Shown piece by piece: positions 4,378 to 35,302 of a DNA stretch of 64,000 nt. The notes under the pieces were generated by a model. It did not search any database. It was not told the DNA's origin and saw nothing but the letters and a program-made list of their open reading frames with translations. Location: positions 100,807 to 164,806 of the forward strand of contig CAVUBX010000003.1 in assembly GCA_963739935.1 (NCBI GenBank), given 5' to 3'. Positions within the stretch are counted from its first letter, which is position 1. Each line of letters begins with the position of its first letter. A program made the position numbers and the translations under genes. This DNA comes from an uncultured Acidobacteriota bacterium (GTDB taxonomy: Bacteria > Acidobacteriota > Terriglobia > Acidiferrales > UBA7541).

Positions 4378-6558
4378 GTGGGTGAAAACGCGATCCAGCG
4401 CCTGAGCCGCAAAGGATGGGAAGCGATCTCCAACCCGCGTCGAATTGCTTTGATAGGCGCCAGCGGACGCGAGAGCAGCGTTAGCTTCACCAGCCGATTC
4501 CTGCAGACCAACAAGGAACTTGGATTTGGCGGCGAAATTTATCTGATCAATCCCAGCCGCTCCGAAATCATGGGCCGAAAATGCTGGCCGAGTATTGCTG
4601 CGCTGCCCGAACCACCCGATATCGTTGCCATCAATCTTCCCGATGCGAAGGTCCTGCCGGCCGTCGAGGAGGCCATCGCTCACGGAGCCGGAGCGTTAAT
4701 AATCCATGCCGGCGGCTTTCTTGAGCGTGGTACGGCGGGCGCAGAGCGGCAAAAAGAGCTTCAGCGGCTGTGCACGGAAGCGGGCATTCCGGCTCTCGGT
4801 CCCAATTGCCTGGGTTTTCTGAGCTTCACGAATCGCGCATCGATTTCAAGTTTCAAGATTGCCGCGGGCAGCGCGGCGGGTTCGATTGCCGCGATCAGCC
4901 AAAGTGGATCGGTGGCCTCGCTGCTGCAAGGCATCGCCGGCCGCCACGGATTGTCTTTTTTGGCCTCCACTGGGAACGAGGCTGTGACAACGGCTGAAGA
5001 TCTCATCAGCTATGCCATCGAAGATCCCGCCACGCGCCTGATCGTGGCCTTCGTCGAAGGATTTCGCAAACCGAAAGAATTGTTTAGCCTCTCTGAGCGC
5101 GCGCAAGCAGCCGGAAAGCCAGTAATTCTGCTTAAAGCGGGGCTGACCCAGGAGGGCAGCGCCGTATCTCGCGGACATACCGGCGCGATCGCTGGATCGG
5201 GCGCGGTTTACCGGCAAGCTCTGCGGCAAGCAAATTTCATAGTCGTCGAAGATTTCGATGAGCTGGCGCAGACCGTGGAGCTGATCGCCTCGTGGCGAGT
5301 GCCTCCGAAATCATTTCGCGTGGGTATGCTGGGCACTTCAGGTGGAGAACTTAGCACCATCACGGATCAGTGTGTTGCGCACGGCCTGAAGTTGCCGGCA
5401 CTCGCGTCGCACACACTTACGGCGCTTCAATCTGTACTTCATCTTCCCAGCGACGTGTTTCCGCGCAATCCAGTCGACGTCGGAATCGGCTTTAGCACTC
5501 CTGGCAGCTATCAGGACCGCATGCGCGCGGCCATCCACACCGTTGCTGCCGATCCTTCTGTTGATATTGTCGCCGTGCTCCAGGGATTCAATCGCGACAG
5601 TCCCGACATTGCTTACTCGCTGAACCGTGAGATATTGGGCGCAACCGCACAAGAGTCGACTTTAATAGGGAAACCCACCTTGGTAGTGGCAACCCGAGCG
5701 GGATTCGCTGACGAAGAAGTTTTGGCGGAGGTGCAAGCAGCCAATATTCCGGCGCTTCAGGGTAGTCGCGAAGCTTTGCGCGCTTTGGGCCACTTTGAGG
5801 ATTACTCGCAGCGTCTCGTACGAAGCAAAACGCCTTCTCTCCCTTGGCCGCAACCGTCCGGCGGCATCTCCGCTCTTCTAAAAAATAAGGACGTAGTTGG
5901 GCAGGTGGAGTTGTTCGACTATTTGGCGGAAAATGGGTTAGCCACTGCGACGATGCGCCGCGTGGGAAGCAAGACGGAAGCTGAACAGGCCGCTCGCGAG
6001 CTGGGTCCGCCTGTAGTGATGAAGATCGATACGGCGCGCGTGGTGCACAAGAGCGACATTGGCGGCGTGGCGTTAGATGTAACGCCGGAGAATGCCGCGC
6101 ACACGTACGAAAAGCTTCTCAATTGTCTCAATCCGCCGCTGGGCTCTTTCCCCGGCGAAGGGATCGTGGCAGCGAAACAAGTCGAAAGCGGTCTCGAAGT
6201 TTACATTGGGGCGAAGCAGGACGAGAGCTTCGGCTGCGTAGTGGTTTTTGGGCTGGGAGGGCGATTGCTCGAGCTTCTCAATCGAAATACGATGCTAGTC
6301 GTGCCTTTTGACCAGTCCGACGCGCTGGAAGCTATCGAGCGCAGCGGTGTTCATCCGTTCCTCAACGGTTTCCGCGGCGGCCCCGTAGCTGATTTTGCGG
6401 AACTGGCCAGAATAATGGTTCGCGTCGGGCAAATCGCGGCCTCCATCGGCGATCGTCTCGAGGTCCTCGATCTCAATCCGGTGATCGTGAATGCGCGCTA
6501 TCCAGGCGGCATCATCGCGGACGCCCGCCTTCTGTTGCTTCCGGAGCCTCAACCATGA
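4378..6558 (+). CDS. ADP-forming acyl-CoA synthetase (fused CoA-binding, succinyl-CoA-synthetase-like and ATP-grasp domains)
   Basis: Lies in ORF 4114..6558. Has a CoA-binding N-terminus (RRIALIGASGRES), a GHTGAIAGS phosphohistidine-loop-like motif and a C-terminal ATP-grasp (VVMKIDTARVVHKSDIGGV). A GTG start at 4378 was chosen because the upstream part of the ORF overlaps the previous gene. The start is uncertain. Confidence 0.8.
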   Translation: MGENAIQRLSRKGWEAISNPRRIALIGASGRESSVSFTSRFLQTNKELGFGGEIYLINPSRSEIMGRKCWPSIAALPEPPDIVAINLPDAKVLPAVEEAIAHGAGALIIHAGGFLERGTAGAERQKELQRLCTEAGIPALGPNCLGFLSFTNRASISSFKIAAGSAAGSIAAISQSGSVASLLQGIAGRHGLSFLASTGNEAVTTAEDLISYAIEDPATRLIVAFVEGFRKPKELFSLSERAQAAGKPVILLKAGLTQEGSAVSRGHTGAIAGSGAVYRQALRQANFIVVEDFDELAQTVELIASWRVPPKSFRVGMLGTSGGELSTITDQCVAHGLKLPALASHTLTALQSVLHLPSDVFPRNPVDVGIGFSTPGSYQDRMRAAIHTVAADPSVDIVAVLQGFNRDSPDIAYSLNREILGATAQESTLIGKPTLVVATRAGFADEEVLAEVQAANIPALQGSREALRALGHFEDYSQRLVRSKTPSLPWPQPSGGISALLKNKDVVGQVELFDYLAENGLATATMRRVGSKTEAEQAARELGPPVVMKIDTARVVHKSDIGGVALDVTPENAAHTYEKLLNCLNPPLGSFPGEGIVAAKQVESGLEVYIGAKQDESFGCVVVFGLGGRLLELLNRNTMLVVPFDQSDALEAIERSGVHPFLNGFRGGPVADFAELARIMVRVGQIAASIGDRLEVLDLNPVIVNARYPGGIIADARLLLLPEPQP

Positions 6559-24452: not shown

Positions 24453-27400
24453 TTAGTCCGCGGCCACTTCCTGCCGCTGTTCCACCTGCCCTCGAAGCTG
24501 AGCTTCCATTTGCGCAAGCTGCGCGGCAATTTCTTCCTCTGCTTTTCGCCGCTTGATGATCGTCTCGCGGTAACGCCGCAGGAAGTAGTCGATGGTCTCC
24601 ACGCGGATGCGAATCGATCCGCTCGGCTTGTTTTCGTCGAGGTCCTTGAAGCAGAAGTACGGCGTGCCGGAATTCTCGATGATCCCTTCGATCACGCCAT
24701 AAATCGGCGCGTCGTGCCCGCACTTGAAGCTGGAAATCTCCAGCGCCACCAGGTTCGGATGCCGCGCCGTAAACTTCGCCGCCCAAATCTTGTGGTTCGT
24801 GCTGCACGAGTAGGAATTCTTCCACGCGTCGGTGATATCCAGCGCGTGGCTCACCACTCCCGCGCGCACCTCCTCGCCGAACAGCCGCTCCAGCATGTCC
24901 TCATCCAGCGGTAGCGTGCTCTGCGAGAAGATCGGATATCCGAGCTTCTGGAACTCTTCCATGATCTCGTGGTTCAGGCCCGGATCGTGATGATATGGCC
25001 TGCCCAGCATCACGATGCCGATGCGGTCCTCGCGCTCGAGCTGGTCAAGCACCTGGCGAGCTTGCGATCGGATCTTCTTCTCGTAATCGTCAACCGCTTT
25101 GTAGCCCACCTCGATCGCCCGGTCGTTTTCTTCGAGCGACAATCCCAGAACATCTTTCCAGGCGTCGAACATCTGGTGCGCGAATAGTTTTTTATCCGCG
25201 AAGTTCAGGATCGGATCGATGTACTTCACATTGATTTCCGCGAAAGCGTCGTTTTCCTTCGTGAACGCGGCCTTCACGGTGGCCGGAGTCGCCGTCACCG
25301 TGGGGCACGCATTCGTCCCGGTCAGCTTCACCAGCGGGGAAGTGAGCACGTCGATCATCGGAAAGAAGATCGCGTCGAGCGGCTTCTTGCGGTGCTTCAC
25401 CTGAATCAGGTTGTAGACGTGTGAGATGCCTATCTTTGCCGGGAAGCACGGGTCGATCGATCCGCGGCTCGCGCCCGCGCGATACAGCTCCGGGCTGGTG
25501 AAGTCCGAGTAGATGATGTTTTCCGGCTGTACGCCCAGGCTTTCGAGATACGCGTTGAACAGCGGCGCGTACACGTACGCGTTCAGCACGCGCGGAATTC
25601 CGATGCGCAGTTGATCGCGCGTCTCCATTTTCTCGATGCGTTCTTTCGATGCCCGCGTCCAGCCGCGCGCCGGAATCGGATCCGCGACCGACTTCGAGTT
25701 TTGCGGACGGAACACTTCGTGCGCTGCGATGTCCACGAAATTCGGGTTCGCGTCCTTGATCTGGTCGAGCCCGGCCTTGATGCCCTTCATGTCGTTCACA
25801 TCTTCCACCGTGCCTTTTTCGCAGGTGGCGATGATCAGCCGCTGCTCGTCGGCTGCCAGCGGCACCTTGGTCACTTTCTTCTTCGGCTGCGTCACGGGCA
25901 AGGGCATCAGCGTGTCGGTCTTGATGTCGATGAACGTGCGCAGGCAGGTGTTCTTGCAGAAGTTGCAGCGCGTGTCTTCGTTGCGCGTGGTGCGGTATTC
26001 GATCCTGCGCACTGAATCCAGCCCGATGAACGTTGTCCGCATGCCGTTTTTCCACAGCCGCAGCGCTTCGGCCGCCGCGCCAATCGCGCCGGATTCACCG
26101 CAATGCTCGTGCACGATAATTTCCGGCTGCTTGCCCGCGGCGCGGAAGCTGCTGCGGATGAAATCCACTTCCGCTTTCACCACCGCCAGGTTGTTCTGCG
26201 TTCCGCCTTGCAGCACGAAGCGCGAACCCAGCGCCGCCAGGTTCGGAATGCTGGCCACGTACAGGAATACGTTCTTCGGCAGCACCGCCGCCAGCCCGGC
26301 CAGAATTTCCTTGGCCTGCCAGCCCTGCCGCTGGAAGTTCACAATGTCCGACTGCATGAACACCGCGCAGCCGTACCCGAACATCGGCATGGAATTGGCC
26401 GAAAATGCCAGCTCAGCGAAGTCTTCCACCTTCAGCCCGAAACCTTCCACCGTCGATTGCAGGAAGTATCCATTGCCCGCCGAGCACTGCGTGTTCAGCT
26501 TGAAATCCTTCACGCGCCCGTCTTTCAGCACGATCAGCTTGATGTCCTGCCCGCCCACGTCCACGATCACGTGCGGGTCGTCGTAGAACTTCAGCGCCGA
26601 TTCGGTGTGCGCCACCGTTTCCACCAGCCCCACGTCGGCTTTCAGCACATCCTTCAAGATATCTTTCGCGTAGCCGGTGGTAGCCACGCCCAGAACTTCG
26701 AGTTTTGCGTGCTGCGCTTCCACTTGTCCGCGCAGGTTCTCGAACATCTCAATCGTGTCCTGAATCGGATTCCCGTTCGAGAGCTGGTAGGACTTGCAGA
26801 GAATGTCTCCATTCTCATCCAGCAGCACGGCCTTGGTCGAAGTCGACCCGCCGTCGACGCCGATGAATCCGCCGACGGTTTGCCCCTTGGAAAAAGTCGC
26901 GGGAATAAATTTCTTGCGCTTGTATTGCTCGCGAAAAGTGGCCAACTCGTCGCCGGACTTCACCAGCCCCGATCCGCCAGACTTGGCCTTCTCTTCCTGC
27001 CGTCCCACTTCGATGTAATGGATCAGCTTGTCGTAGCCGTGGTAGCAGCCGACGCAATCGTCTTCGTCCTTGCCGAATTCGATCGCGCCCAGCGCCGCGA
27101 AATACTGCGCGTTCTGCGGCACTTTGATCAGCTCTTCCGGCTTCGTTCCCGCCGGAATTTCCACTTTGCGCTCTTCCCACATTTTCGGGATGTTCGCTTG
27201 CCACGCTTCCTTCATCCCGCGAATAAAAGTGTTCGGTCCGCCCAGCAGCAGAACATGCGGCTTCAGCGTGTTGCCGCGCGTCAGCACGCTCAGGTTCTGC
27301 AGCACGATGGCGTCGAACAGCGACGCCATCAACTGGTCCGGTGGCGTGCCCACTTTCTGCAAGCCGTTGATGTCCGTCTCGGCGAACACGCCGCACTTTC

Positions 27401-28025
27401 CGGCCACTTTGTGCAGCTTGATGCCGTGATAACCCTGATCGCTCAGTTCCGCCGCGGGAATTTTCAGCTTGGCGTTGATCTTGTCGATCACCGCGCCCGT
27501 GCCGCCGGCGCACTTGTCGTTCATCGACGGGATCTTCTTCTTCCGCCCGCTCTCGTTGTCGTCCTTGAACACGATAATTTTCGCGTCCTGCCCGCCCAGC
27601 TCGATAACGGAATAGACCTCGGGATGCGCCTTTTCCACCGCCAGCGCCACCGCCGTTACTTCCTGCACGAATTTCGCCCCGATCAGCTCCGCAAGCACAC
27701 CACCGCCCGACCCGGTCACGAACATGCGCGTATTGCTGGCGCTCACGCCGACTTCGGCTTCGATCCGCTTCAAAAACTCCAGCGTTTTTTCCGGCTGCTT
27801 GGTTTCGTGGCGTTGGTAATCCTGCCAGAGGATTTCATCGGTGGCGGCGTTCACCACCAGCGCTTTTACTGTGGTCGAGCCGATGTCGAGTCCCACCATG
27901 AAGCGGTTCTCGCGGTCATTTCCGTGCGCCGCCCCATGTGGCGCGCCGTGCCCCATTCCATGCGCCGACCCATTTCCATTGCCGTTGCCGTTGCCGTTCC
28001 CATGCTGTGCCTCGTTACCATGCAT
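24453..28025 (-). CDS. BcrAD/BadFG-type ATPase (2-hydroxyacyl-CoA dehydratase/benzoyl-CoA reductase activase, two tandem ATPase domains) fused to a DUF2229/dehydratase-like C-terminal domain
   Basis: Two acetate/sugar-kinase-fold ATPase starts are present (VGLDIGSTTVKALV and IGVDGGSTSTKAVLL), each followed by a conserved Cys (KCAGGTGA, QCSAGNGY) typical of the bridging 4Fe-4S cluster. The protein is about 1190 aa. The start was placed at MHGNEAQ inside ORF 24453..28133. Confidence 0.85.
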   Translation of the reverse strand: MHGNEAQHGNGNGNGNGNGSAHGMGHGAPHGAAHGNDRENRFMVGLDIGSTTVKALVVNAATDEILWQDYQRHETKQPEKTLEFLKRIEAEVGVSASNTRMFVTGSGGGVLAELIGAKFVQEVTAVALAVEKAHPEVYSVIELGGQDAKIIVFKDDNESGRKKKIPSMNDKCAGGTGAVIDKINAKLKIPAAELSDQGYHGIKLHKVAGKCGVFAETDINGLQKVGTPPDQLMASLFDAIVLQNLSVLTRGNTLKPHVLLLGGPNTFIRGMKEAWQANIPKMWEERKVEIPAGTKPEELIKVPQNAQYFAALGAIEFGKDEDDCVGCYHGYDKLIHYIEVGRQEEKAKSGGSGLVKSGDELATFREQYKRKKFIPATFSKGQTVGGFIGVDGGSTSTKAVLLDENGDILCKSYQLSNGNPIQDTIEMFENLRGQVEAQHAKLEVLGVATTGYAKDILKDVLKADVGLVETVAHTESALKFYDDPHVIVDVGGQDIKLIVLKDGRVKDFKLNTQCSAGNGYFLQSTVEGFGLKVEDFAELAFSANSMPMFGYGCAVFMQSDIVNFQRQGWQAKEILAGLAAVLPKNVFLYVASIPNLAALGSRFVLQGGTQNNLAVVKAEVDFIRSSFRAAGKQPEIIVHEHCGESGAIGAAAEALRLWKNGMRTTFIGLDSVRRIEYRTTRNEDTRCNFCKNTCLRTFIDIKTDTLMPLPVTQPKKKVTKVPLAADEQRLIIATCEKGTVEDVNDMKGIKAGLDQIKDANPNFVDIAAHEVFRPQNSKSVADPIPARGWTRASKERIEKMETRDQLRIGIPRVLNAYVYAPLFNAYLESLGVQPENIIYSDFTSPELYRAGASRGSIDPCFPAKIGISHVYNLIQVKHRKKPLDAIFFPMIDVLTSPLVKLTGTNACPTVTATPATVKAAFTKENDAFAEINVKYIDPILNFADKKLFAHQMFDAWKDVLGLSLEENDRAIEVGYKAVDDYEKKIRSQARQVLDQLEREDRIGIVMLGRPYHHDPGLNHEIMEEFQKLGYPIFSQSTLPLDEDMLERLFGEEVRAGVVSHALDITDAWKNSYSCSTNHKIWAAKFTARHPNLVALEISSFKCGHDAPIYGVIEGIIENSGTPYFCFKDLDENKPSGSIRIRVETIDYFLRRYRETIIKRRKAEEEIAAQLAQMEAQLRGQVEQRQEVAAD

Positions 28026-28179
28026 TGTCGATTCCCCCGGAATTTCCGTGTGAAACGTGGGTTGAATGGAGGGGAGCGACGGCCAGCGACGGCTCGCTCC
28101 CCTGGAACGACGGGCGACTCGGCTGTGCTTCATTGGCGCATGTTATATGCGCCAAGCGACGCGCCCTACGAGACACCAG

Positions 28180-29967
28180 CTACGCTACATTCGGTACGGC
28201 CACTCCGCCCTGCACCCGCGAGCGCCGCCAGAACCGATGGCTCTTGTCCATGCGCTCGCCCACATGCAAAACGAATTGAGCCGCTGTTCCGGCGATTCCC
28301 GGCGCGTGCGGCACGTGGTAGAACGGTTTCCGCAGTTCCGCATGCTCGGCGATGTAGCCGCGAATGTCATCGAGCGATTTGCCGGTCGACTTCAGCGCCT
28401 GCTCGAATTCCATCTTGGCCTTGACCTTCGCTTCGCCCAGTGCCATCTGGACGCGGCTGTGCGCGTTCACTTCGCCTTCGCCGGAAGTTTCGATGGGTAG
28501 GAAAATCATGTCTTTGAACTTGTTGATCACCGCGGATTGCACGCCGTCCGATTGCGACGATGGCATGCAGCCGAATGGCTTCAGCGCCAGCACCATGTGG
28601 CAGAGGTGGTTCACCGTGTAATATACGTTCTTGCCCACTTCGAGGTGGCCTTCTCCACCGCGCGCAAACTGGTTGTAGAACGGATGCGCCAGCCGCGCCA
28701 GCTCCGGCTGCGGTACCAGCTCGTGCGTAATGCCGCCCAGATTCTTGATCACCCGGTGGTAGAAGTGGTACCAGAGCGTCTCGCCCACCGCGATGCCCAT
28801 AAGTTTCTTGCGCAGGGACATCTGGTTGGCCAGATGCTTCCGCACTTCGTACCATTTCGGCGTGCGATGCGGCCGCGTTACCGGATATTTCCGCCGCGCA
28901 TTTGCTTTGCCCTGGTACATCAGGTACGCCACCCAGGTCGCGATCGGCTCCACGATCACCTGCGCGCCTTCGCGCTCCAGGAACTCGAACATGTGGAAGT
29001 TGCCGTCGCCTTCGGTGGTTTGCGCCCAGAATTCGCCGGTCACTTTCACCACCGGCTTCACCCGCGTGCGGTCCACTTCCACTTTGTCCATCGATTCGCG
29101 GCACTCTTTCAGCGCATCCAGATAGATGTCGCCATACAGGTGCTCGCGAATCTTGCCGAGCGTATTGAAAGTGTTGCGCACGGCTTTTTTCTTGGAAAGG
29201 TAGCCATGCGTGAACTTCGGCGCGCGCTGCATGATCTCAAACGCCGGGCGGTCGCGAAGCGTGGTGGAAAGCTTGTCCATCGCGCCCTTGAACACCTTTT
29301 CCGTTTCGCCCTTGTTCACTTCGAACGGGCGCACCTGGTAAATCATATCGTTCATCACGTCGCCCACATGCAGCGCGTTCAGCATGCCCAGGCCGAAATC
29401 CACCGTGAATTTCAGTCCTGGCTCGCCGGAGGCCGCTTTCAACCCATCGCTGTCGTGGAACAGCAGCACGCGGAAGCCATCGAATCCCGCGTTCTTCAGC
29501 GCGAAGCGGTACTCCGCCTCGTACATGCCGAAGCGGCACGGCCCGCACGAGCCCGCCGTAAAGAATACATAGTTGTCCAGAATGTCCCGGCGCGACTGGC
29601 CCTCTTTTTCCAGTGTCTGCAGATGTTTCACCAGGTTGCCAACGGTGAAGTAGGTGGGATTGCACTGCCCGTTGTTCCCGTACTCTTTGCCGAGCTGAAA
29701 CCCGGCCACGTCGGGGCAGGGCACTCGCTCGCAGTGGTAACCCGTGCCCAGAAAAACGGCACGGATCAGTTCTTCGTGTTTCCAGGTGAGGCCGCCAAAC
29801 AGGATAGTCACTCGGCTGCGCTCTTCGGCGGTGAAGGCGCGCTCGATGGGTTTGTGGAAATGCTTGGGGGCTTCCAGGCCCGCCAGCTTTCGCAGCCGCA
29901 GCCTTTCGGCGGCTAAACGTTCGGCAATCTCTCGGTCATGCTCGATCTGTACCAGTCCTGTTGCCAT
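28180..29967 (-). CDS. acyl-CoA dehydratase activase-related / 2-hydroxyacyl-CoA dehydratase-like (DUF2229-type) protein
   Basis: Conserved Cys motifs are NNGQCNPTYF, GSCGPCRFGMYE and LKPFGCMPSS. It lies immediately upstream of, and co-oriented with, the activase fusion gene. Confidence 0.75.
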   Translation of the reverse strand: MATGLVQIEHDREIAERLAAERLRLRKLAGLEAPKHFHKPIERAFTAEERSRVTILFGGLTWKHEELIRAVFLGTGYHCERVPCPDVAGFQLGKEYGNNGQCNPTYFTVGNLVKHLQTLEKEGQSRRDILDNYVFFTAGSCGPCRFGMYEAEYRFALKNAGFDGFRVLLFHDSDGLKAASGEPGLKFTVDFGLGMLNALHVGDVMNDMIYQVRPFEVNKGETEKVFKGAMDKLSTTLRDRPAFEIMQRAPKFTHGYLSKKKAVRNTFNTLGKIREHLYGDIYLDALKECRESMDKVEVDRTRVKPVVKVTGEFWAQTTEGDGNFHMFEFLEREGAQVIVEPIATWVAYLMYQGKANARRKYPVTRPHRTPKWYEVRKHLANQMSLRKKLMGIAVGETLWYHFYHRVIKNLGGITHELVPQPELARLAHPFYNQFARGGEGHLEVGKNVYYTVNHLCHMVLALKPFGCMPSSQSDGVQSAVINKFKDMIFLPIETSGEGEVNAHSRVQMALGEAKVKAKMEFEQALKSTGKSLDDIRGYIAEHAELRKPFYHVPHAPGIAGTAAQFVLHVGERMDKSHRFWRRSRVQGGVAVPNVA

Positions 29968-30440: not shown

Positions 30441-30475
30441 AAAAGAGCGCCTTCTTTCGAAGGCGCTCTTTGGAC
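30441..30475 (-). terminator. rho-independent terminator (13-bp stem, TTTC/GAAA loop, T-run on the minus strand)
   Basis: The minus strand reads AAAGAGCGCCTTC-GAAA-GAAGGCGCTCTTT followed by TTATTTAT. It lies 34 nt downstream of the small ORF stop. Confidence 0.75.
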
Positions 30476-30508: not shown

Positions 30509-30643
30509 TTAGCCCATATGCGTCACGGCAGGGCGCACACGCCTCCGTACCAATTCTTTGTAATGCGCATGGGCGAACTTGCCGAGAACCACAAGGTAGA
30601 AGACGCACGCCAGCCCGGCGAGAGAACTGAATGCAATTTCCAT
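30509..30643 (-). CDS. unannotated 44-aa single-pass membrane peptide (MEIAFSSLAGLACVFYLVVLGKFAHAHYKELVRRRVRPAVTHMG)
   Basis: It is below the 60-aa cutoff of the ORF track. A GGAGG motif sits 5 nt upstream of the ATG. It has a hydrophobic helix plus a basic tail and its own strong terminator. Confidence 0.5.
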   Translation of the reverse strand: MEIAFSSLAGLACVFYLVVLGKFAHAHYKELVRRRVRPAVTHMG

Positions 30644-30763
30644 AGTGCCTCCTTGTGGGCCTAAGCTCGTCTAACAGAAGACTCAGCTTACGAAATGTGC
30701 AAAGTTCTTCCCATCCGCTGTTTGCTGTAGATCATTGTGAGCCAGTTCTGTATCTCGCTGAAA

Positions 30764-31195
30764 TCAAGACACTACGAAGCGATCTTCGGGCGTCAGCTCC
30801 ACGGTGTGAATTTCATCGAACCCCTCTTCAAGCGTGGGGCGCTGAATGTTTTTGAACGTGCCAGCGATGGCCACTGGCGGAACTCGCTGCTTGCCTTTTC
30901 GCAGATTGTTGCGGCGCAGGGCTTCACTCATGGGCGTGGAGAAAAAGTACGCGATCATGCGAAAGCCCGCGACGCGCGCCGGCGCGATGTAGCGGGCGCG
31001 ATCGGCCGGCGTGGGATTGGTATTGTCGACCACGAAAGACTGTTGCCCAGCGATACACGCCTCCAGAATGAGCTTTTCGCGGTGGCGGGTCCGCAGCATG
31101 TCGAGATTGATGCGGACATGCGTGTCGAGAAACGTTTCGCGGTAGAAGGTGCTTTTGCCGCTGCCTTGCCCGCCAATGAAGATGACCGCTTCCAC
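30764..31195 (-). CDS. stand-alone P-loop polynucleotide 5-prime-kinase-like protein (PNKP kinase-domain homologue, AAA_33-like)
   Basis: Has Walker A GGQGSGKSTF. The block VVDNTNPTPADRARYIAPARVAGFRMIAYFF...ALRRNNLR...PTLEEGF aligns by eye with the kinase domain of metazoan PNKP (IDNTNPD..SRARY..CAR.AG). The GTG start lies 6 nt after the upstream stop. Confidence 0.75.
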   Translation of the reverse strand: MEAVIFIGGQGSGKSTFYRETFLDTHVRINLDMLRTRHREKLILEACIAGQQSFVVDNTNPTPADRARYIAPARVAGFRMIAYFFSTPMSEALRRNNLRKGKQRVPPVAIAGTFKNIQRPTLEEGFDEIHTVELTPEDRFVVS

Positions 31196-31201
31196 AGTCC
31201 G

Positions 31202-31960
31202 CTACATCCCTGCGGAAGCGGTCGCGTGGCACGAAAGCTTCGGCAGCTTCGCCAGCTTGGCCAACTTGGGTGGACGCGGCCCGTGCCGCACGGCCGTGGC
31301 CACCGGGACGTATGTCAGTTCTTCGCCGGACCGCGCGCAGCGCAGCATCAGTCCGCCGCGGCTCATGTCTCCTCGTCCGGCGAACTCCGCGGGAAACATC
31401 AATCGCTCGCCGAAAATTCCGAGAAGCGGCTCTACATATTTGGGAGTGGCCACGCTGCCGAGCAGCACTACATCGCACGCCGCTCCGATCCGCTCGCGCA
31501 ATTTCCACGCGTCGCGTTCCAGCGGCTCGCGGTACCGTGCCTCCTTCGCTTCGATCGGAACGGCGGAAATTTCCCGCAACATGTCGATGGTGAAAAGCGT
31601 TTCGGGAGGAATCAGCCCGCCGCCGGCGGTGATGACGAACGAGCGCGCTTCACCATCCACCGGCGCAGCGAACGTTTGCGCATAGACCAGCTTGCCGCGG
31701 AAGTACAGTCCGCTGATGAAGCTAAAAATTTCTCCAAGCGGCAGGCCTTCTCGCCTCAGGCGCGCCGCCAGCGCGAATTGCGCTCGATCACTCAGGATCA
31801 TTTTTGCGCGTAGTCCACCGGCGTTCGCGGGGGAGAGCAGGAAAATCCGGCGAGGCCGCGCGGCTGGCTCGGAATTCTCCGCGCCCGCGCTCGGAGTCGC
31901 GGTGACCGTCACTCGCTTTGCTGTGCGCTTGGAGTTTTTCGCCGTTCTTGATGTTGCCAT
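31202..31960 (-). CDS. conserved hypothetical protein co-transcribed with the PNK-like kinase
   Basis: Lies in ORF 31202..32005, with the start at MATSRTAKN or 15 codons upstream. Has a basic N-terminal tail, the conserved-looking blocks IFLLSPANAGGLRAK, VITAGGGLIPPE, VVLLGSVATPKYV and FPAEFAGRGDMSRGGLMLR, and a C-terminal PKLAKLAKLPKL tail. No family was recognised. Confidence 0.6.
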   Translation of the reverse strand: MATSRTAKNSKRTAKRVTVTATPSAGAENSEPAARPRRIFLLSPANAGGLRAKMILSDRAQFALAARLRREGLPLGEIFSFISGLYFRGKLVYAQTFAAPVDGEARSFVITAGGGLIPPETLFTIDMLREISAVPIEAKEARYREPLERDAWKLRERIGAACDVVLLGSVATPKYVEPLLGIFGERLMFPAEFAGRGDMSRGGLMLRCARSGEELTYVPVATAVRHGPRPPKLAKLAKLPKLSCHATASAGM

Positions 31961-32104
31961 AGCTGACTCGCGCTCCCTCCGCTCTATTGTCGTGGCTAAT
32001 GCCACGACTCACAAGTCCGCCCCCCTCGAGTAAATCAAGCATGCTCGCAATGGAATACCAAGGGAAGATCGTAGTAGGATGCCACTGCAAATGGGGGTGG
32101 AAAC

Positions 32105-33663: not shown

Positions 33664-34007
33664 TGTCATTCCGAGCGAGCTCCCTGGCGACCCGGTTAGG
33701 GGCGCGGTGGACAATCCGCGATCCGATCAGGATCGCGCAGCGAGTCGAAGAATCTCTCTTCTGTTTTGAAGTGATGTTCGTTTTACGTTGTCATCCCGAG
33801 CGGAGCGGCTTTGGAGACCCGGTTAGGGGCGCGTAGCGTAGTCGAGGGATCTGCATTTTCTTTTGCATTGTCATCCCGAGCGAGCGAAGCGACGAGGGAT
33901 CTGCTTTTTCTTTGCTATGATTTTCGCCGTCATTCCGGGCCCAGCCGACGACCCGATTAGGGCCGGAGTCCTGAGCGGAGCAACGCGAGCGAAGGAGCTC
34001 TCCTCGT
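33664..34007 (+). repeat. intergenic hairpin repeat family, locus 5: array of four copies (33664-33763, 33789-33860, 33869-33910, 33929-34007)
   Basis: Each copy starts (T)GTCAT(C/T)CCG(A/G)G and ends CGAGGGATCTGC or GAAGAATCTCTCTTC. Inner stems contain CCCGGTTAGGGG. Confidence 0.85.
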
Positions 34008-34138
34008 CACAGACTCTTGCAGCGCAAGTCGCACCGGCGCCCAGCCCGCCATCCGTTGCCGGATTCAGCGCCTGAAACATGCCTTACAATTGTACGGACT
34101 GAATTGCACCACTAACTTATCTGTCGGAGGATTCAATC

Positions 34139-34624: not shown

Positions 34625-34654
34625 CCCGCGCTTCGCGCTGTTTTTTTCTTTCGC

Positions 34655-35175
34655 TGTCATCTCGAGCGAGCCGCACCCGGTTAGGGGCGCGGTAGCGAAG
34701 AATCCCTCTTCGCTTTTGAAGTTTGCTGTTTCGCTGTCATCCTGAGCCGCACCCGGTTAGGCCGCAGAAAAAAGGGCGATCCGGATTTAGCCCTTCGTCC
34801 AATCGAAGGCTCCGCCGCTGATCCTCACAAAATCACCCTTGTGCCTCTCATGATCTTCCCGGGTGCCGCATCGCTTTGCGCCCTTTGCAATGCGTGCGTG
34901 GCTTTGCCTAACTACATGCTCGCTTTTATCCGAGCACATACTTCAGCGAGTCATTCTGAGCGCAGCGAAGAATCTCTCTTCGCTTTTGAATTTGCTGTTT
35001 GGTTTTTCAGTCGCTGTTGATTTTCGTTTGTCATCCCGAGCGAGCCGCGCCCGGTTAGGGCGTAGAAAAAAGGACGAGAGATCTCTCCTGGTTTTTGACT
35101 TTGCTGTTCGGTTTTTCCAGCGGAGTTCAGCGGCCCCTCAGGGCCGCTGAACGCAGTCGAGGGACCTGCATTTTC
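34655..35175 (+). repeat. intergenic hairpin repeat family, locus 6: array of five to six copies (34655-34713, 34735-34784, 34950-34983, 35029-35090, 35118-35175) with a recurring TTTTGAA-TTTGCTGTT linker
   Basis: Termini and inner hairpins match the other loci. The last unit has a 12-bp stem GTTCAGCGGCCC-CTCA-GGGCCGCTGAAC. Confidence 0.85.
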
Positions 35176-35302
35176 TTCGTTATTGTCTTCGCGTTCGGTC
35201 TCTCGCCTGCAAACGCGCCCGCCGTAACTCTTCCGCTGGCTTCGCCCCGCCGGTCCATTGCCCGCGCCATGCCGCCACGTTAACTTTGTTCGAGAGACTG
35301 CG

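Follow-up and report, generated by a model that had tools for sequence, protein, structure and literature searches.

The window, by which we mean the whole 64-kb stretch of DNA that was analysed, carries on its minus strand a gene for a protein here called the partner, followed at once by a gene for a putative polynucleotide kinase and then by a small open reading frame and an intrinsic terminator (Table 1). The three reading frames, the short junction between the first two, the ribosome-binding site and the terminator of the original prediction were all found where it had placed them on this strand, and so were the motifs that it quoted, namely GGQGSGKSTF, VVDNTNPTPADRARYIAPARVAGF, RRNNLR, PTLEEGF, IFLLSPANAGGLRAK, LLGSVATPKYV, FAGRGDMSRGGLMLR and PKLAKLAKLPKL. 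The TAG stop of the partner gene (31202-31204) is separated from the GTG of the kinase gene by exactly the six nucleotides of the junction, which suggests translational coupling of the two. This GTG start is supported by the kinase homologues, since all of them begin with MEAVIF. Partner and kinase are genes rather than chance reading frames because each has thousands of homologues. A longer version of the partner, starting from a GTG at 32005, is also possible. The neighbours of the cassette in the window are unrelated to it (an NHL propeller protein, a BcrAD/BadFG activase, a PEBP protein and UbiD), and the 64 kb hold no gene for LigD, Prim-Pol, ligase or Ku. In the genome of this soil bacterium the cassette stands alone, surrounded by unrelated genes.

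Table 1. Position of the genes and other features of the locus within the window.
Feature	Position	Strand	Description
Partner gene	31202-31960	minus	252 aa counted from ATG
Partner/kinase junction	31196-31201	minus	6 nt, CGGACT
Kinase gene	30764-31195	minus	143 aa, GTG start
Small ORF	30509-30643	minus	44 aa, one hydrophobic helix, basic tail
Intrinsic terminator	30442-30471	minus	13-bp stem, 4-nt loop, T-run

The small ORF has an AAGGAGG sequence (30654-30648) 4 nt upstream of its ATG and encodes a single hydrophobic stretch. The terminator begins 37 nt past it and folds with an energy of -31.3 kcal/mol (z-score -4.7; none of 200 shuffles folded as well), and from the kinase stop to the small ORF no terminator-like site was found beyond generic weak matches. 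The terminator is predicted to close a transcription unit of partner, kinase and small ORF, and the small ORF is probably co-transcribed with the pair. Homologous small ORFs with a transmembrane stretch lie 119-142 nt downstream of the kinase in a few related loci (L001, L022, L026 and L107/L108). The 44-aa ORF of the original prediction is real, with its ribosome-binding site, transmembrane stretch and terminator, but its conservation is confined to close relatives, those with a kinase of 71% identity or more. It is missing from the more distant pair loci and from most pair loci overall. It is a lineage-restricted, predicted small membrane protein outside the widely conserved pair.

The 143-aa protein is a predicted stand-alone 5′-OH polynucleotide kinase of the PNKP/T4 Pnk clade. 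Pfam places it in AAA_33 (1.5e-13), and among the NCBIfam models it matches the kinase part (positions 365-502 of 520) of TIGR01663, PNK-3'Pase (E 9.4e-15), at 54 bits against a cut-off of 502.8 bits for the bifunctional PNKP equivalog. Its length and the lack of any other Pfam domain leave it without phosphatase or ligase domain, as had been read from the letters. The likeness to the metazoan PNKP kinase domain, proposed from its motifs, came out on top in both sequence and fold searches. The top PDB sequence match is mouse PNKP (3u7g; E 2.7e-12, about 32% identity), in an alignment that pairs NRD/NLD, IDNTNP/VDNTNP, RARYI and PTLxEGF. With an AF2 model of the kinase (pLDDT 91) as query, Foldseek ranks 1-8 were all mouse PNKP (E 2e-13 to 1e-11, TM 0.76-0.87) and ranks 9-18 were fungal Trl1-type, Clostridium and T4 polynucleotide kinases. 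Small-molecule kinases, a better match to which would have spoken against the assignment, were far weaker in the same search (gluconate kinase E 6.6e-6, seven orders of magnitude worse than PNKP; adenylate kinase 2.9e-5), and the fold is nearer to the polynucleotide kinases.

The residues expected of such an enzyme are in place. The P-loop, GxxxxGK[ST] after strand 1, reads G8-G-Q-G-S-G-K14-S15-T16; 43 homologues all have its G8, G11, G13 and K14, and the motif is also kept in mouse PNKP and in the fusion proteins described below. In the alignment with mouse PNKP, D32 falls on the Asp of NRD; D57-N-T-N60, R66, R95, N96 and R99 are invariant among homologues, and E124-G-F-D127 are further key residues. 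From what is known of T4 Pnk and PNKP we take D32 to be the general base after strand 2 and the arginines of RxxxR to contact phosphate.

The mammalian PNKP kinase domain (mouse 1YJ5, 3U7E-H, 3ZVL-N) has in common with the window kinase the P-loop, the catalytic Asp (NRD vs NLD), [IV]DNTNP, RARYI, NN.R and PTLxEGF, and the role predicted for the window kinase is the same, phosphorylation of 5′-OH at DNA breaks ahead of ligation. Mammalian PNKP has FHA and HAD 3′-phosphatase domains in addition, whereas the window protein is a kinase domain only; in place of a phosphatase in the same chain it has an unrelated protein to which it is coupled and, in relatives, fused. A bacterial precedent is DRB0098 of Deinococcus radiodurans, which is described as a PNKP-like 5′-kinase similar to human PNK and of unusual domain architecture, encoded in the operon of DRB0100, an ATP-dependent ligase homologue, and proposed to ready DNA termini for ligation (PMC1997131). 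[quoted passage not shown] Presumably DRB0098 carries an HD-type phosphatase domain, and its operon presumably includes a macro-domain protein. Bacterial Pnkp-Hen1 and HD-Pnk, the latter a 5′-kinase paired with an HD domain, resemble the kinase-partner pair in joining a PNK-clade 5′-kinase to a second end-processing module, and by analogy the partner could be a second healing activity. In these systems, however, the second module is a metallophosphoesterase or an HD domain and carries conserved metal ligands, and the partner has no such ligands.

The partner consists of a basic disordered N-terminal tail (residues 1-36), an alpha/beta core (about residues 37-220), a conserved RHGxRPPKL motif and a PKLAKLAKLPKL tail. 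Its family is large: clustering at 90% leaves more than 8000 homologues and clustering at 50% identity at least 1,573 clusters, every one of which carries the name "hypothetical". Thousands of members occur in soil Acidobacteriota, Verrucomicrobiota and Myxococcota. Neither the single sequence nor an 80-sequence profile gave any Pfam, NCBIfam or PDB sequence match, the window partner finding nothing in Pfam at E≤1. The AF2 model (pLDDT 90.2) likewise found nothing in the PDB below E 0.35 or above TM 0.3 by Foldseek. A uracil-DNA-glycosylase-like fold and an ordinary Rossmann dehydrogenase fold were both considered for the partner and rejected because this fold search gave no meaningful match. 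A well-known metabolic family, which would have undone the proposal, was thus found in none of Pfam, NCBIfam and the PDB, by sequence or by fold. Searches of 50,697 phage records by tblastn and of PHROGs returned nothing usable.

The partner core has a pI of 9.3 (family median 9.5). The conserved motifs of the family are LLSPAxxxGxRA and [FI]SGLYFRGK, and S43, A45, S83, L85, Y86, R88 and K90 are invariant. The conserved Gly-rich and Ser/Tyr/Arg/Lys loops come after beta-strands, which is the usual site of a phosphate-binding pocket. No conserved acidic or His cluster is present in the family, so that the partner is not a conventional metal-dependent phosphoesterase.

The description of the partner as unrecognised stands as far as database families are concerned, but is qualified by a weak, consistent similarity to DUF6884, a relative of YaaA, and the partner family is probably a remote relative of this DNA-binding group. 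In BFVD the top match of the partner model is a DUF6884 protein of Mycobacterium phage Mendokysei (E 1.7e-3, prob 1.0, TM 0.38), the second match reaching only E 0.27. The DUF6884 profile, PF21818, weakly matches 4 of 80 partner family members; the best of them reaches 16.2 bits (E 0.012), where the cut-off is 30. These matches span positions 23-123 of 135, and in two members they take in nearly the whole profile. YaaA (DUF328), DUF6884 (PF21818; YfjM in B. subtilis) and the partner are alike in size (about 200-260 aa), in being basic alpha/beta proteins and in their link to DNA damage. The order of motifs in YaaA and the partner is colinear (ILISPAK/FLLSPAN, LSGLYG/ISGLYF, VINLASDEY/VLLGSVATPKY and ARGLMSRF/GRGDMSRGG); the signature motifs are SPAK and LSGLYG in YaaA and CxxxK and LSAxxG in DUF6884, the CxxxK cysteine of which is missing from the partner. 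All of this similarity is under every curated threshold. The YaaA structure 5CAJ was not among the 50 Foldseek PDB matches listed for the partner model, and by hhalign the family profile gave no significant match either to E. coli YaaA alone or to 112 YaaA homologues (probability 0.3%), the latter a shallow template since the YaaA search gave only sequences at least 82% identical. DNA binding has been described for both DUF6884 and YaaA, and pull-downs with abasic and RNA-base lesions recovered YfjM (PMC11701544). YaaA has been reported to bind DNA and to protect from peroxide, mitomycin C and UV. A literature search found no link between YaaA/DUF6884 and LigD-type genes or polynucleotide kinases.

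The predicted coupling of kinase and partner is borne out in part. The kinase directly adjoins the partner in 18 of 105 related loci, with equally tight spacing or overlaps of 0-142 nt, and at least 14 of the best 120 kinase clusters have the same longest contig as one of the best 120 partner clusters. Fusions of the two also exist in either domain order and keep every motif, as kinase-partner (P0122, P0135) and as partner-kinase (P0121 and P0187, the last found on four contigs from different samples). The pairing is however not obligatory, as most partner genes have no adjoining kinase and a kinase 69% identical to that of the window was found without a partner. A 251-aa neighbour of one partner-less kinase (L109) was considered as a diverged partner and dismissed, having no match to the family HMM and a weak one to NTP_transf_5. 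An apparent partner-ligase fusion, P0253, was counted as adjacency only because its Arg-rich C-terminal part is a wrong-frame read-through into the adjoining ligase gene.

The genes that surround the partner in related bacteria give the pair a concrete functional context. About 30 of the 105 loci have a gene for a LigD Prim-Pol, an ATP-dependent ligase or a LigD phosphoesterase (3′-phosphoesterase) within 5 kb of the partner, and a LigD-type gene is near the partner in 13 of 25 genome loci. These genes mostly adjoin the partner directly, in several different arrangements: Prim-Pol, ligase, partner and kinase in L003 and L055, ligase, partner and kinase in L032, and in L073 a partner followed directly by a bona fide fused LigD; L003 and L084 have a DnaE-type polymerase upstream. 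An unbiased census, which covered 130 immediate neighbours, has the ATP-dependent ligase as its commonest family. About 61 of the 105 partner loci, many of them on short contigs, have neither a kinase nor a LigD-type gene. Ku was absent from the top neighbour families of the census, and tblastn with an approximate sequence of M. tuberculosis Ku found no match in the window or in the loci searched.

A role in nucleic-acid end healing, as first put forward for the pair, fits this recurrence of the partner family in operons for LigD-type Prim-Pol, ATP-dependent ligase and phosphoesterase, the activity itself being predicted from sequence. The arrangement recalls the excision-repair complex of mycobacterial LigC/Prim-PolC and LigD/Ku end joining (NHEJ) in that the partner genes of relatives sit with stand-alone or fused LigD-type Prim-Pols, a label that here covers C and D types together, and with ATP-dependent ligases; LigC operons also have no adjoining Ku gene. 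In contrast to these systems the window holds the partner-kinase pair alone, and the factors associated with LigC and LigD that are mentioned in the available parts of PMC5663958 include neither a polynucleotide kinase nor the partner family.

We consider it rather likely that the two genes of the locus form a cassette, co-transcribed and probably coupled in translation, which is predicted to process broken or damaged DNA ends. Because in related bacteria the partner family sits inside operons for the repair of DNA breaks, the pair probably serves this repair in bacteria as an accessory not described before. The substrate would be DNA rather than RNA. The partner would bind DNA at the site of damage or at the terminus and would touch the kinase physically as it works; it might serve as a targeting or scaffold subunit or contribute a second, metal-independent end- or lesion-processing activity. 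The kinase would move a phosphate from an NTP onto 5′-OH termini, and the resulting 5′-phosphate would then be what ATP-dependent DNA ligases need to seal and also the docking point of LigD/LigC-type primase-polymerases on gaps and ends. In relatives, the same partner is built into Ku-less Prim-Pol/ATP-ligase operons. Binding and synthesis by Prim-PolC are described as stimulated by a 5′-phosphate (PMC5663958).

Polynucleotide kinases of the PNKP/T4 Pnk clade can use RNA as well as DNA, and one may ask whether the pair instead heals RNA, the kinase acting on 5′-OH RNA ends such as those left by a ribotoxin and its partner binding or processing RNA in the manner of the Pnkp/Hen1, RtcB or tRNA-ligase pathways. 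Fungal Trl1-type kinases, Clostridium thermocellum Pnk and Pnkp1 are among the near fold neighbours, and the bacterial Pnkp profile TIGR04075, a model for kinase, phosphatase and ligase in one chain beside a Hen1 gene, matches weakly (4.7e-8), at 31.7 bits against a cut-off of 750. LigD Prim-Pols moreover prefer to insert ribonucleotides (PMC5663958), so that RNA-DNA junctions are part of Prim-Pol chemistry. We nevertheless regard RNA repair as unlikely, since PNKP, a DNA kinase, beats T4 Pnk by at least seven orders of magnitude and Clostridium Pnk by four, since none of the neighbours was seen to encode an RNA ligase, Hen1, RtcA or RtcB, and since the neighbours that do recur are DNA ligase, Prim-Pol and LigD phosphoesterase.

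Less likely still is a place in nucleotide or small-molecule metabolism, with an AAA_33 kinase acting on a small molecule, a Rossmann-like nucleotide or cofactor enzyme as its partner and an indirect link to repair. This would accord with the generic AAA_33 family being all that Pfam assigns to the kinase, with the resemblance of the conserved Gly-rich loops of the partner to a ligand pocket and with the nucleoside hydrolase family (IU_nuc_hydro) as second commonest in the neighbour census (6 of 130). However, the catalytic Asp after beta2, DNTN and RN..R, all of which mark out polynucleotide kinases, are invariant, the fold matches to gluconate and adenylate kinases are far weaker, and the recurrence of the partner between Prim-Pol, ligase and kinase genes, or fused to the kinase, is hard to square with it. 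An anti-phage defence or toxin-antitoxin-like module, possibly including the small membrane protein, is very improbable. In its favour are a weak Zeta_toxin match in Pfam (5.1e-5), limited to the P-loop region (residues 4-40), and the probably co-transcribed small membrane ORF. Against it, the fold resembles zeta toxin far less than PNKP, the small ORF is missing from most pair loci, the family is chromosomal, widespread and tied to repair genes, the window has no defence-island context, and the defence or stress role first offered as an alternative found no support in PADLOC, which gave no match at E≤0.1 for the kinase, the partner, the peptide or two fusion proteins.

Returning to the repair of DNA ends, bacterial end joining and LigC gap repair as described comprise, to our knowledge, a 3′-end cleaner (the LigD phosphoesterase), a polymerase and a ligase, and no dedicated 5′-kinase. 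Breaks with a 5′-OH cannot be ligated. It is possible, though we put this forward tentatively, that the partner family is an unrecognised component of Ku-independent strand-break or gap repair, a protein of a fold absent from the PDB which would recognise damaged termini or clean them chemically, and that together with the PNKP-type kinase it forms a two-component equivalent of PNKP which supplies the 5′-kinase step. If so, a PNKP-type kinase and a large unnamed family would be added as two candidate components to the end-joining and LigC pathways. The partner family, unannotated as it is, combines a confident predicted fold without solved relative with a concrete functional context. If its relationship to the poorly understood YaaA/DUF6884 group is also true, that group would gain a second, independent tie to the processing of DNA damage.

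Sequence and predicted fold place the 143-aa kinase in the polynucleotide-kinase clade as a stand-alone protein. In Pfam it matches the generic AAA_33 only (1.5e-13); among NCBIfam models TIGR01663 (bifunctional polynucleotide phosphatase/kinase, E 9.4e-15) scores best, with the kinase segment alone covered (positions 365-502 of 520). The best PDB sequence matches are mouse PNKP entries (E 2.7e-12), with T4 Pnk second (1.4e-3). An AlphaFold model built from 43 homologues (pLDDT 91) has mouse PNKP as each of its top eight PDB fold neighbours (E 2e-13 to 1e-11, TM 0.76-0.87, 31-33% identity), corroborating the original prediction of a PNKP-like kinase devoid of a phosphatase domain. It is not a PNKP orthologue, since FHA and phosphatase domains are both missing and its TIGR01663 score is 54 bits, with the cut-off at 502.8. 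In 43 stand-alone homologues the P-loop residues G8, G11, G13 and K14, the residue D32 (matched in the alignment by the Asp of NRD in PNKP), D57-N-T-N60, R66, R95, N96 and R99 are invariant, and more divergent partner-linked kinases, the kinase portions of fusions and mouse PNKP retain these motifs as well. The 6,206 detectable relatives are named only "predicted kinase" or "ATP-binding protein" in their source.

After PNKP, the fold ranking continues with fungal Trl1-type kinases, Clostridium thermocellum Pnk and T4 Pnk. Because RNA-repair kinases are thus the next-best structural neighbours, a role of the kinase-partner pair in RNA repair is conceivable, but we consider it improbable, no RNA ligase, Hen1 or RtcB gene having been seen among the neighbours. 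The polynucleotide-kinase-specific residues contradict a small-molecule role, as does the ranking itself, where PNKP is far ahead of adenylate/gluconate-like kinases, with gluconate kinase, zeta toxin, PSTK and adenylate kinase much further down (E at least 5e-6). The suggested defence module found no support, with neither a PADLOC match nor a defence context in the window.

The three minus-strand ORFs predicted within 31960-30442 are present as described, with matching coordinates, kinase start, AAGGAGG and hairpin. The hairpin has a folding z-score of -4.7 (0/200 shuffles equally good), and since no comparable terminator lies between the ORFs, the partner, kinase and small ORF are likely carried on a single transcript. 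The closest genome relative, a "Candidatus Acidiferrales" MAG (Acidobacteriota), has the same three genes (86%, 87% and 77% aa identity). The 64-kb window contains no LigD-type gene (LigD Prim-Pol, ATP-dependent DNA ligase or LigD 3'-phosphoesterase), and the neighbours of the cassette are unrelated, so that the argument is built on comparison with other loci.

Features in the window and in loci of relatives (L handles)
Feature	Sequence	Coordinates	Strand	Description
Partner ORF	window	31202-31960	minus	252 aa, ATG start
Alternative partner start	window	32005	minus	GTG, +15 residues
Kinase ORF	window	30764-31195	minus	143 aa, GTG start 6 nt past partner TAG
Small ORF	window	30509-30643	minus	44 aa, AAGGAGG before start
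Intrinsic terminator	window	30471-30442	minus	13-bp stem, T-tailed hairpin, 3' of small ORF
Activase gene	window	24453-28133	minus	1226 aa, BcrAD_BadFG + DUF2229 'CoA enzyme activase'
Gene preceding activase	window	28180-29967	minus	595 aa, no Pfam match
Interspersed repeats	window	33680-34100, 34630-35200		both sides of PEBP gene
DnaE-type gene	L003	825-2798		finger, HHH_6, OB domains
DnaE-type gene	L084	133-2100		finger, HHH_6, OB domains
OsmC gene	L005	~5770-6250		directly downstream of partner repair cluster
Catalase gene	L073	7646-9706		large; directly downstream of partner-containing repair cluster
Split partner	L107/L108	5300-5934		two overlapping pieces in different frames
Region of kinase with no partner nearby	L109	4225-5813		69% identical kinase, also in L110

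The 1226-aa activase protein has a His/Gly/Asn-rich low-complexity N-terminus (GNGNGNGNG), and in L107/L108 homologues of its gene and of the 595-aa gene lie downstream of the partner-kinase-small-ORF unit, convergent to the kinase. The short repeats around the PEBP gene (TGTCATCCCGAGCGAGCCGCGCCCGGTTAGGG, TGGCGACCCGGTTAGGGGCGCG and AGCGAAGAATCTCTCTTCGCTTTTGAA, 3-4 copies each) look like a genome-wide intergenic repeat element.

Homologues of the small ORF, each with a basic tail and a single hydrophobic helix, occur in L001, L022, L026 and L107/L108, there as in the window 119-142 nt 3' of the kinase. Identity to the window peptide is 41-77% in L001, L022 and L107/L108, and L026 gave no tblastn match to it. 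As homologues occupy the same place in relatives, where gene predictors also call them, the 44-aa ORF very probably encodes a real small membrane protein. That part of the original prediction stands for close relatives, but the ORF is confined to loci whose kinase shares 71% identity or more with that of the window, and none of the partner-kinase loci beyond this range has it. It is a lineage-specific passenger outside the conserved pair.

Coupling of kinase and partner was assessed in partner-relative loci, 25 from species-representative genomes (mostly Acidobacteriota, with two Verrucomicrobiota and two Myxococcota) and 80 from metagenomes. A kinase homologue directly adjoins the partner in 18 of the 105, downstream in 16 (gap 0-142 nt) and upstream in 2. 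When the top 120 clusters of each protein are compared, at least 14 kinase clusters have their longest contig in common with a partner cluster. Four representatives of partner-family clusters are kinase fusions with every motif of both halves intact, the kinase being N-terminal in P0122 and P0135 and C-terminal in P0121 and P0187, the last being present in separate samples, on four contigs. That fusions exist in either order argues strongly for the two proteins acting together physically. The predicted coupling is accordingly borne out by adjacency and fusion but is not obligatory, most partner genes being without a neighbouring kinase. The partner-less kinase of L109/L110 lies upstream of an rpsP-rimM-trmD cluster, adjacent to an NTP_transf_5-like gene in divergent orientation, with an AP_endonuc_2 (endonuclease IV/xylose-isomerase-like TIM barrel) gene nearby. 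In the syntenic L107/L108, where the kinase is 71% identical, the partner is split by gene callers, which may reflect a frameshift, a pseudogene or an assembly error.

The partner itself has no match in Pfam, NCBIfam or PDB sequences, even at E<=1 to 10. Its homologues number at least 8,000 in a word-indexed search and form 1,573 clusters at 50% identity in an exhaustive HMMER scan (1,180 at E<=1e-10), all named members being "hypothetical protein". In an 80-sequence alignment the conserved core (about residues 37-237) holds the invariant residues S43, A45, S83, L85, Y86, R88, K90, Y93, L167, G168, S169, P190, G197 and R201, within the motifs LLSPAxxxGxRA, SGLYFRGKxxYA, VITxxxGL, VVLLGSIATxKY and FVGRGDMSRGGLLLR. 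A short RHGxRPPKL motif is C-terminal to the fold. Disorder is predicted for the two lineage-specific tails, the Lys/Arg/Thr-rich N-terminal one and PKLAKLAKLPKL. The AlphaFold model is confidently alpha/beta (pLDDT 90.2, pTM 0.81), and its secondary-structure string puts the conserved loops after beta-strands, which would be the usual phosphate/ligand-binding place of such proteins. The core is basic (pI 9.3; family median 9.5). The alignment contains no conserved acidic or histidine cluster, and this lack of metal ligands argues for a role that would be non-catalytic or employ unconventional Ser/Tyr/Lys/Arg chemistry. One representative, P0207 (366 aa), appears to be a fusion of the partner core to a C-terminal GNAT acetyltransferase domain.

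A Foldseek search of the model against 350,542 PDB chains gave nothing (best E 0.35, TM <0.3). Among predicted viral structures the top match belongs to DUF6884 and comes from Mycobacterium phage Mendokysei (E 1.7e-3, prob 1.0, TM 0.38), two orders of magnitude ahead of the next. PF21818 (DUF6884) is also the sole Pfam family matched by more than one of the 80 aligned members (4/80, best E 0.012), the span in two members inspected being profile positions 23-123 and 23-121 of 135, or about window partner residues 85-194. The Pfam authors relate DUF6884 distantly to the DNA-binding E. coli protein YaaA (5CAJ, "cantaloupe" fold), and mention that abasic and RNA-base lesions pulled down B. subtilis YfjM (PMC11701544). 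Caulobacter mutants in yaaA tolerate mitomycin C, UV and peroxide poorly (PMC10055390). Aligned by eye, the motif order is colinear, with ILISPAK, LSGLYG, VINLASDEY and ARGLMSRF of YaaA answering to FLLSPAN, ISGLYF, VLLGSVATPKY and GRGDMSRGG of the partner. Membership of the YaaA/DUF6884 superfamily is probable, although alignment of the partner profile with the shallow YaaA profile was not significant (probability 0.3%).

Recurrent neighbours of the partner are bacterial ligase D modules, confirmed by Pfam as LigD_Prim-Pol (3.5e-86), LigD_N 3'-phosphoesterase (2.6e-46) and DNA_ligase_A_M/C. By tblastn, LigD-type genes lie within 5 kb in about 30 of the 105 loci; for the 25 genome loci, which have full flanks, the figure is 13. 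The partner is followed by Prim-Pol (L009, L010, L013, L024, L025, L077, L095, L098, L100), by a ligase (L020, L085, L089, L102), by a phosphoesterase (L006) or by a fused ligase-Prim-Pol LigD and then catalase (L073); it follows a ligase (L003, L032, L055, L084), or is divergent from (L005, L007, L014) or convergent with (L034, L043, L045) a Prim-Pol-ligase pair. In L003 and L055 all four genes stand in the order Prim-Pol, ligase, partner, kinase. Directly upstream of the Prim-Pol-ligase-partner(-kinase) series in L003 and L084 is a DnaE-type DNA polymerase III alpha-like gene; these loci are 89% identical and therefore represent one lineage. In an unbiased Pfam census of 130 immediate neighbours (L026-L105 and 17 of the genome loci L002-L025), ATP-dependent ligase was the commonest family (11/130), followed by inosine-uridine nucleoside hydrolase (6/130) and CBS-pair proteins (5/130). 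A kinase or LigD-type gene accompanies the partner in 44/105 loci, many of whose contigs are only 1-3 kb; given a handful of such genes per genome, we estimate chance adjacency at well under 1% per locus. Ku was found neither in the window or loci (tblastn with an approximate M. tuberculosis Ku query) nor among the commonest families of the census, and in gene arrangement the Ku-less Prim-Pol and ligase are closer to the mycobacterial LigC/Prim-PolC excision-repair operon (PMC5663958) than to classical NHEJ. A MutY-like HhH-GPD+NUDIX_4 glycosylase gene lies directly upstream of the partner in L026, and the OsmC gene of L005, like the catalase gene of L073 an oxidative-stress gene, has a homologue in the same position in L007.

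ATP-dependent ligases require a 5'-phosphate, and to our knowledge the described bacterial LigD/LigC systems possess a 3'-end healing activity and no 5'-kinase. Binding and gap filling by Prim-PolC are likewise strongly stimulated by a 5'-phosphate (PMC5663958). A PNKP-type kinase would therefore fill this gap, and a precedent is the Deinococcus DRB0098 kinase encoded with an ATP-ligase homologue (PMC1997131). The partner may bind a damaged terminus or lesion and present it to the kinase or process it, and the healed end would pass to Prim-Pol and ligase encoded elsewhere in the source genome. All other characterised PNK-clade kinases that we know of are paired with a 3'-phosphoesterase (HAD, metallophosphoesterase or HD), and by analogy the partner might be a second healing activity. 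In the literature we found no description of the partner family or its link to LigD-type genes, nor of a stand-alone PNKP-like kinase in a LigD-type context. End-healing coupled to break sealing is a known kind of system; what is new is the composition, in which a PNKP-type kinase is joined by a large unannotated family that is without a solved structural relative and recurs inside Ku-less Prim-Pol/ligase operons.
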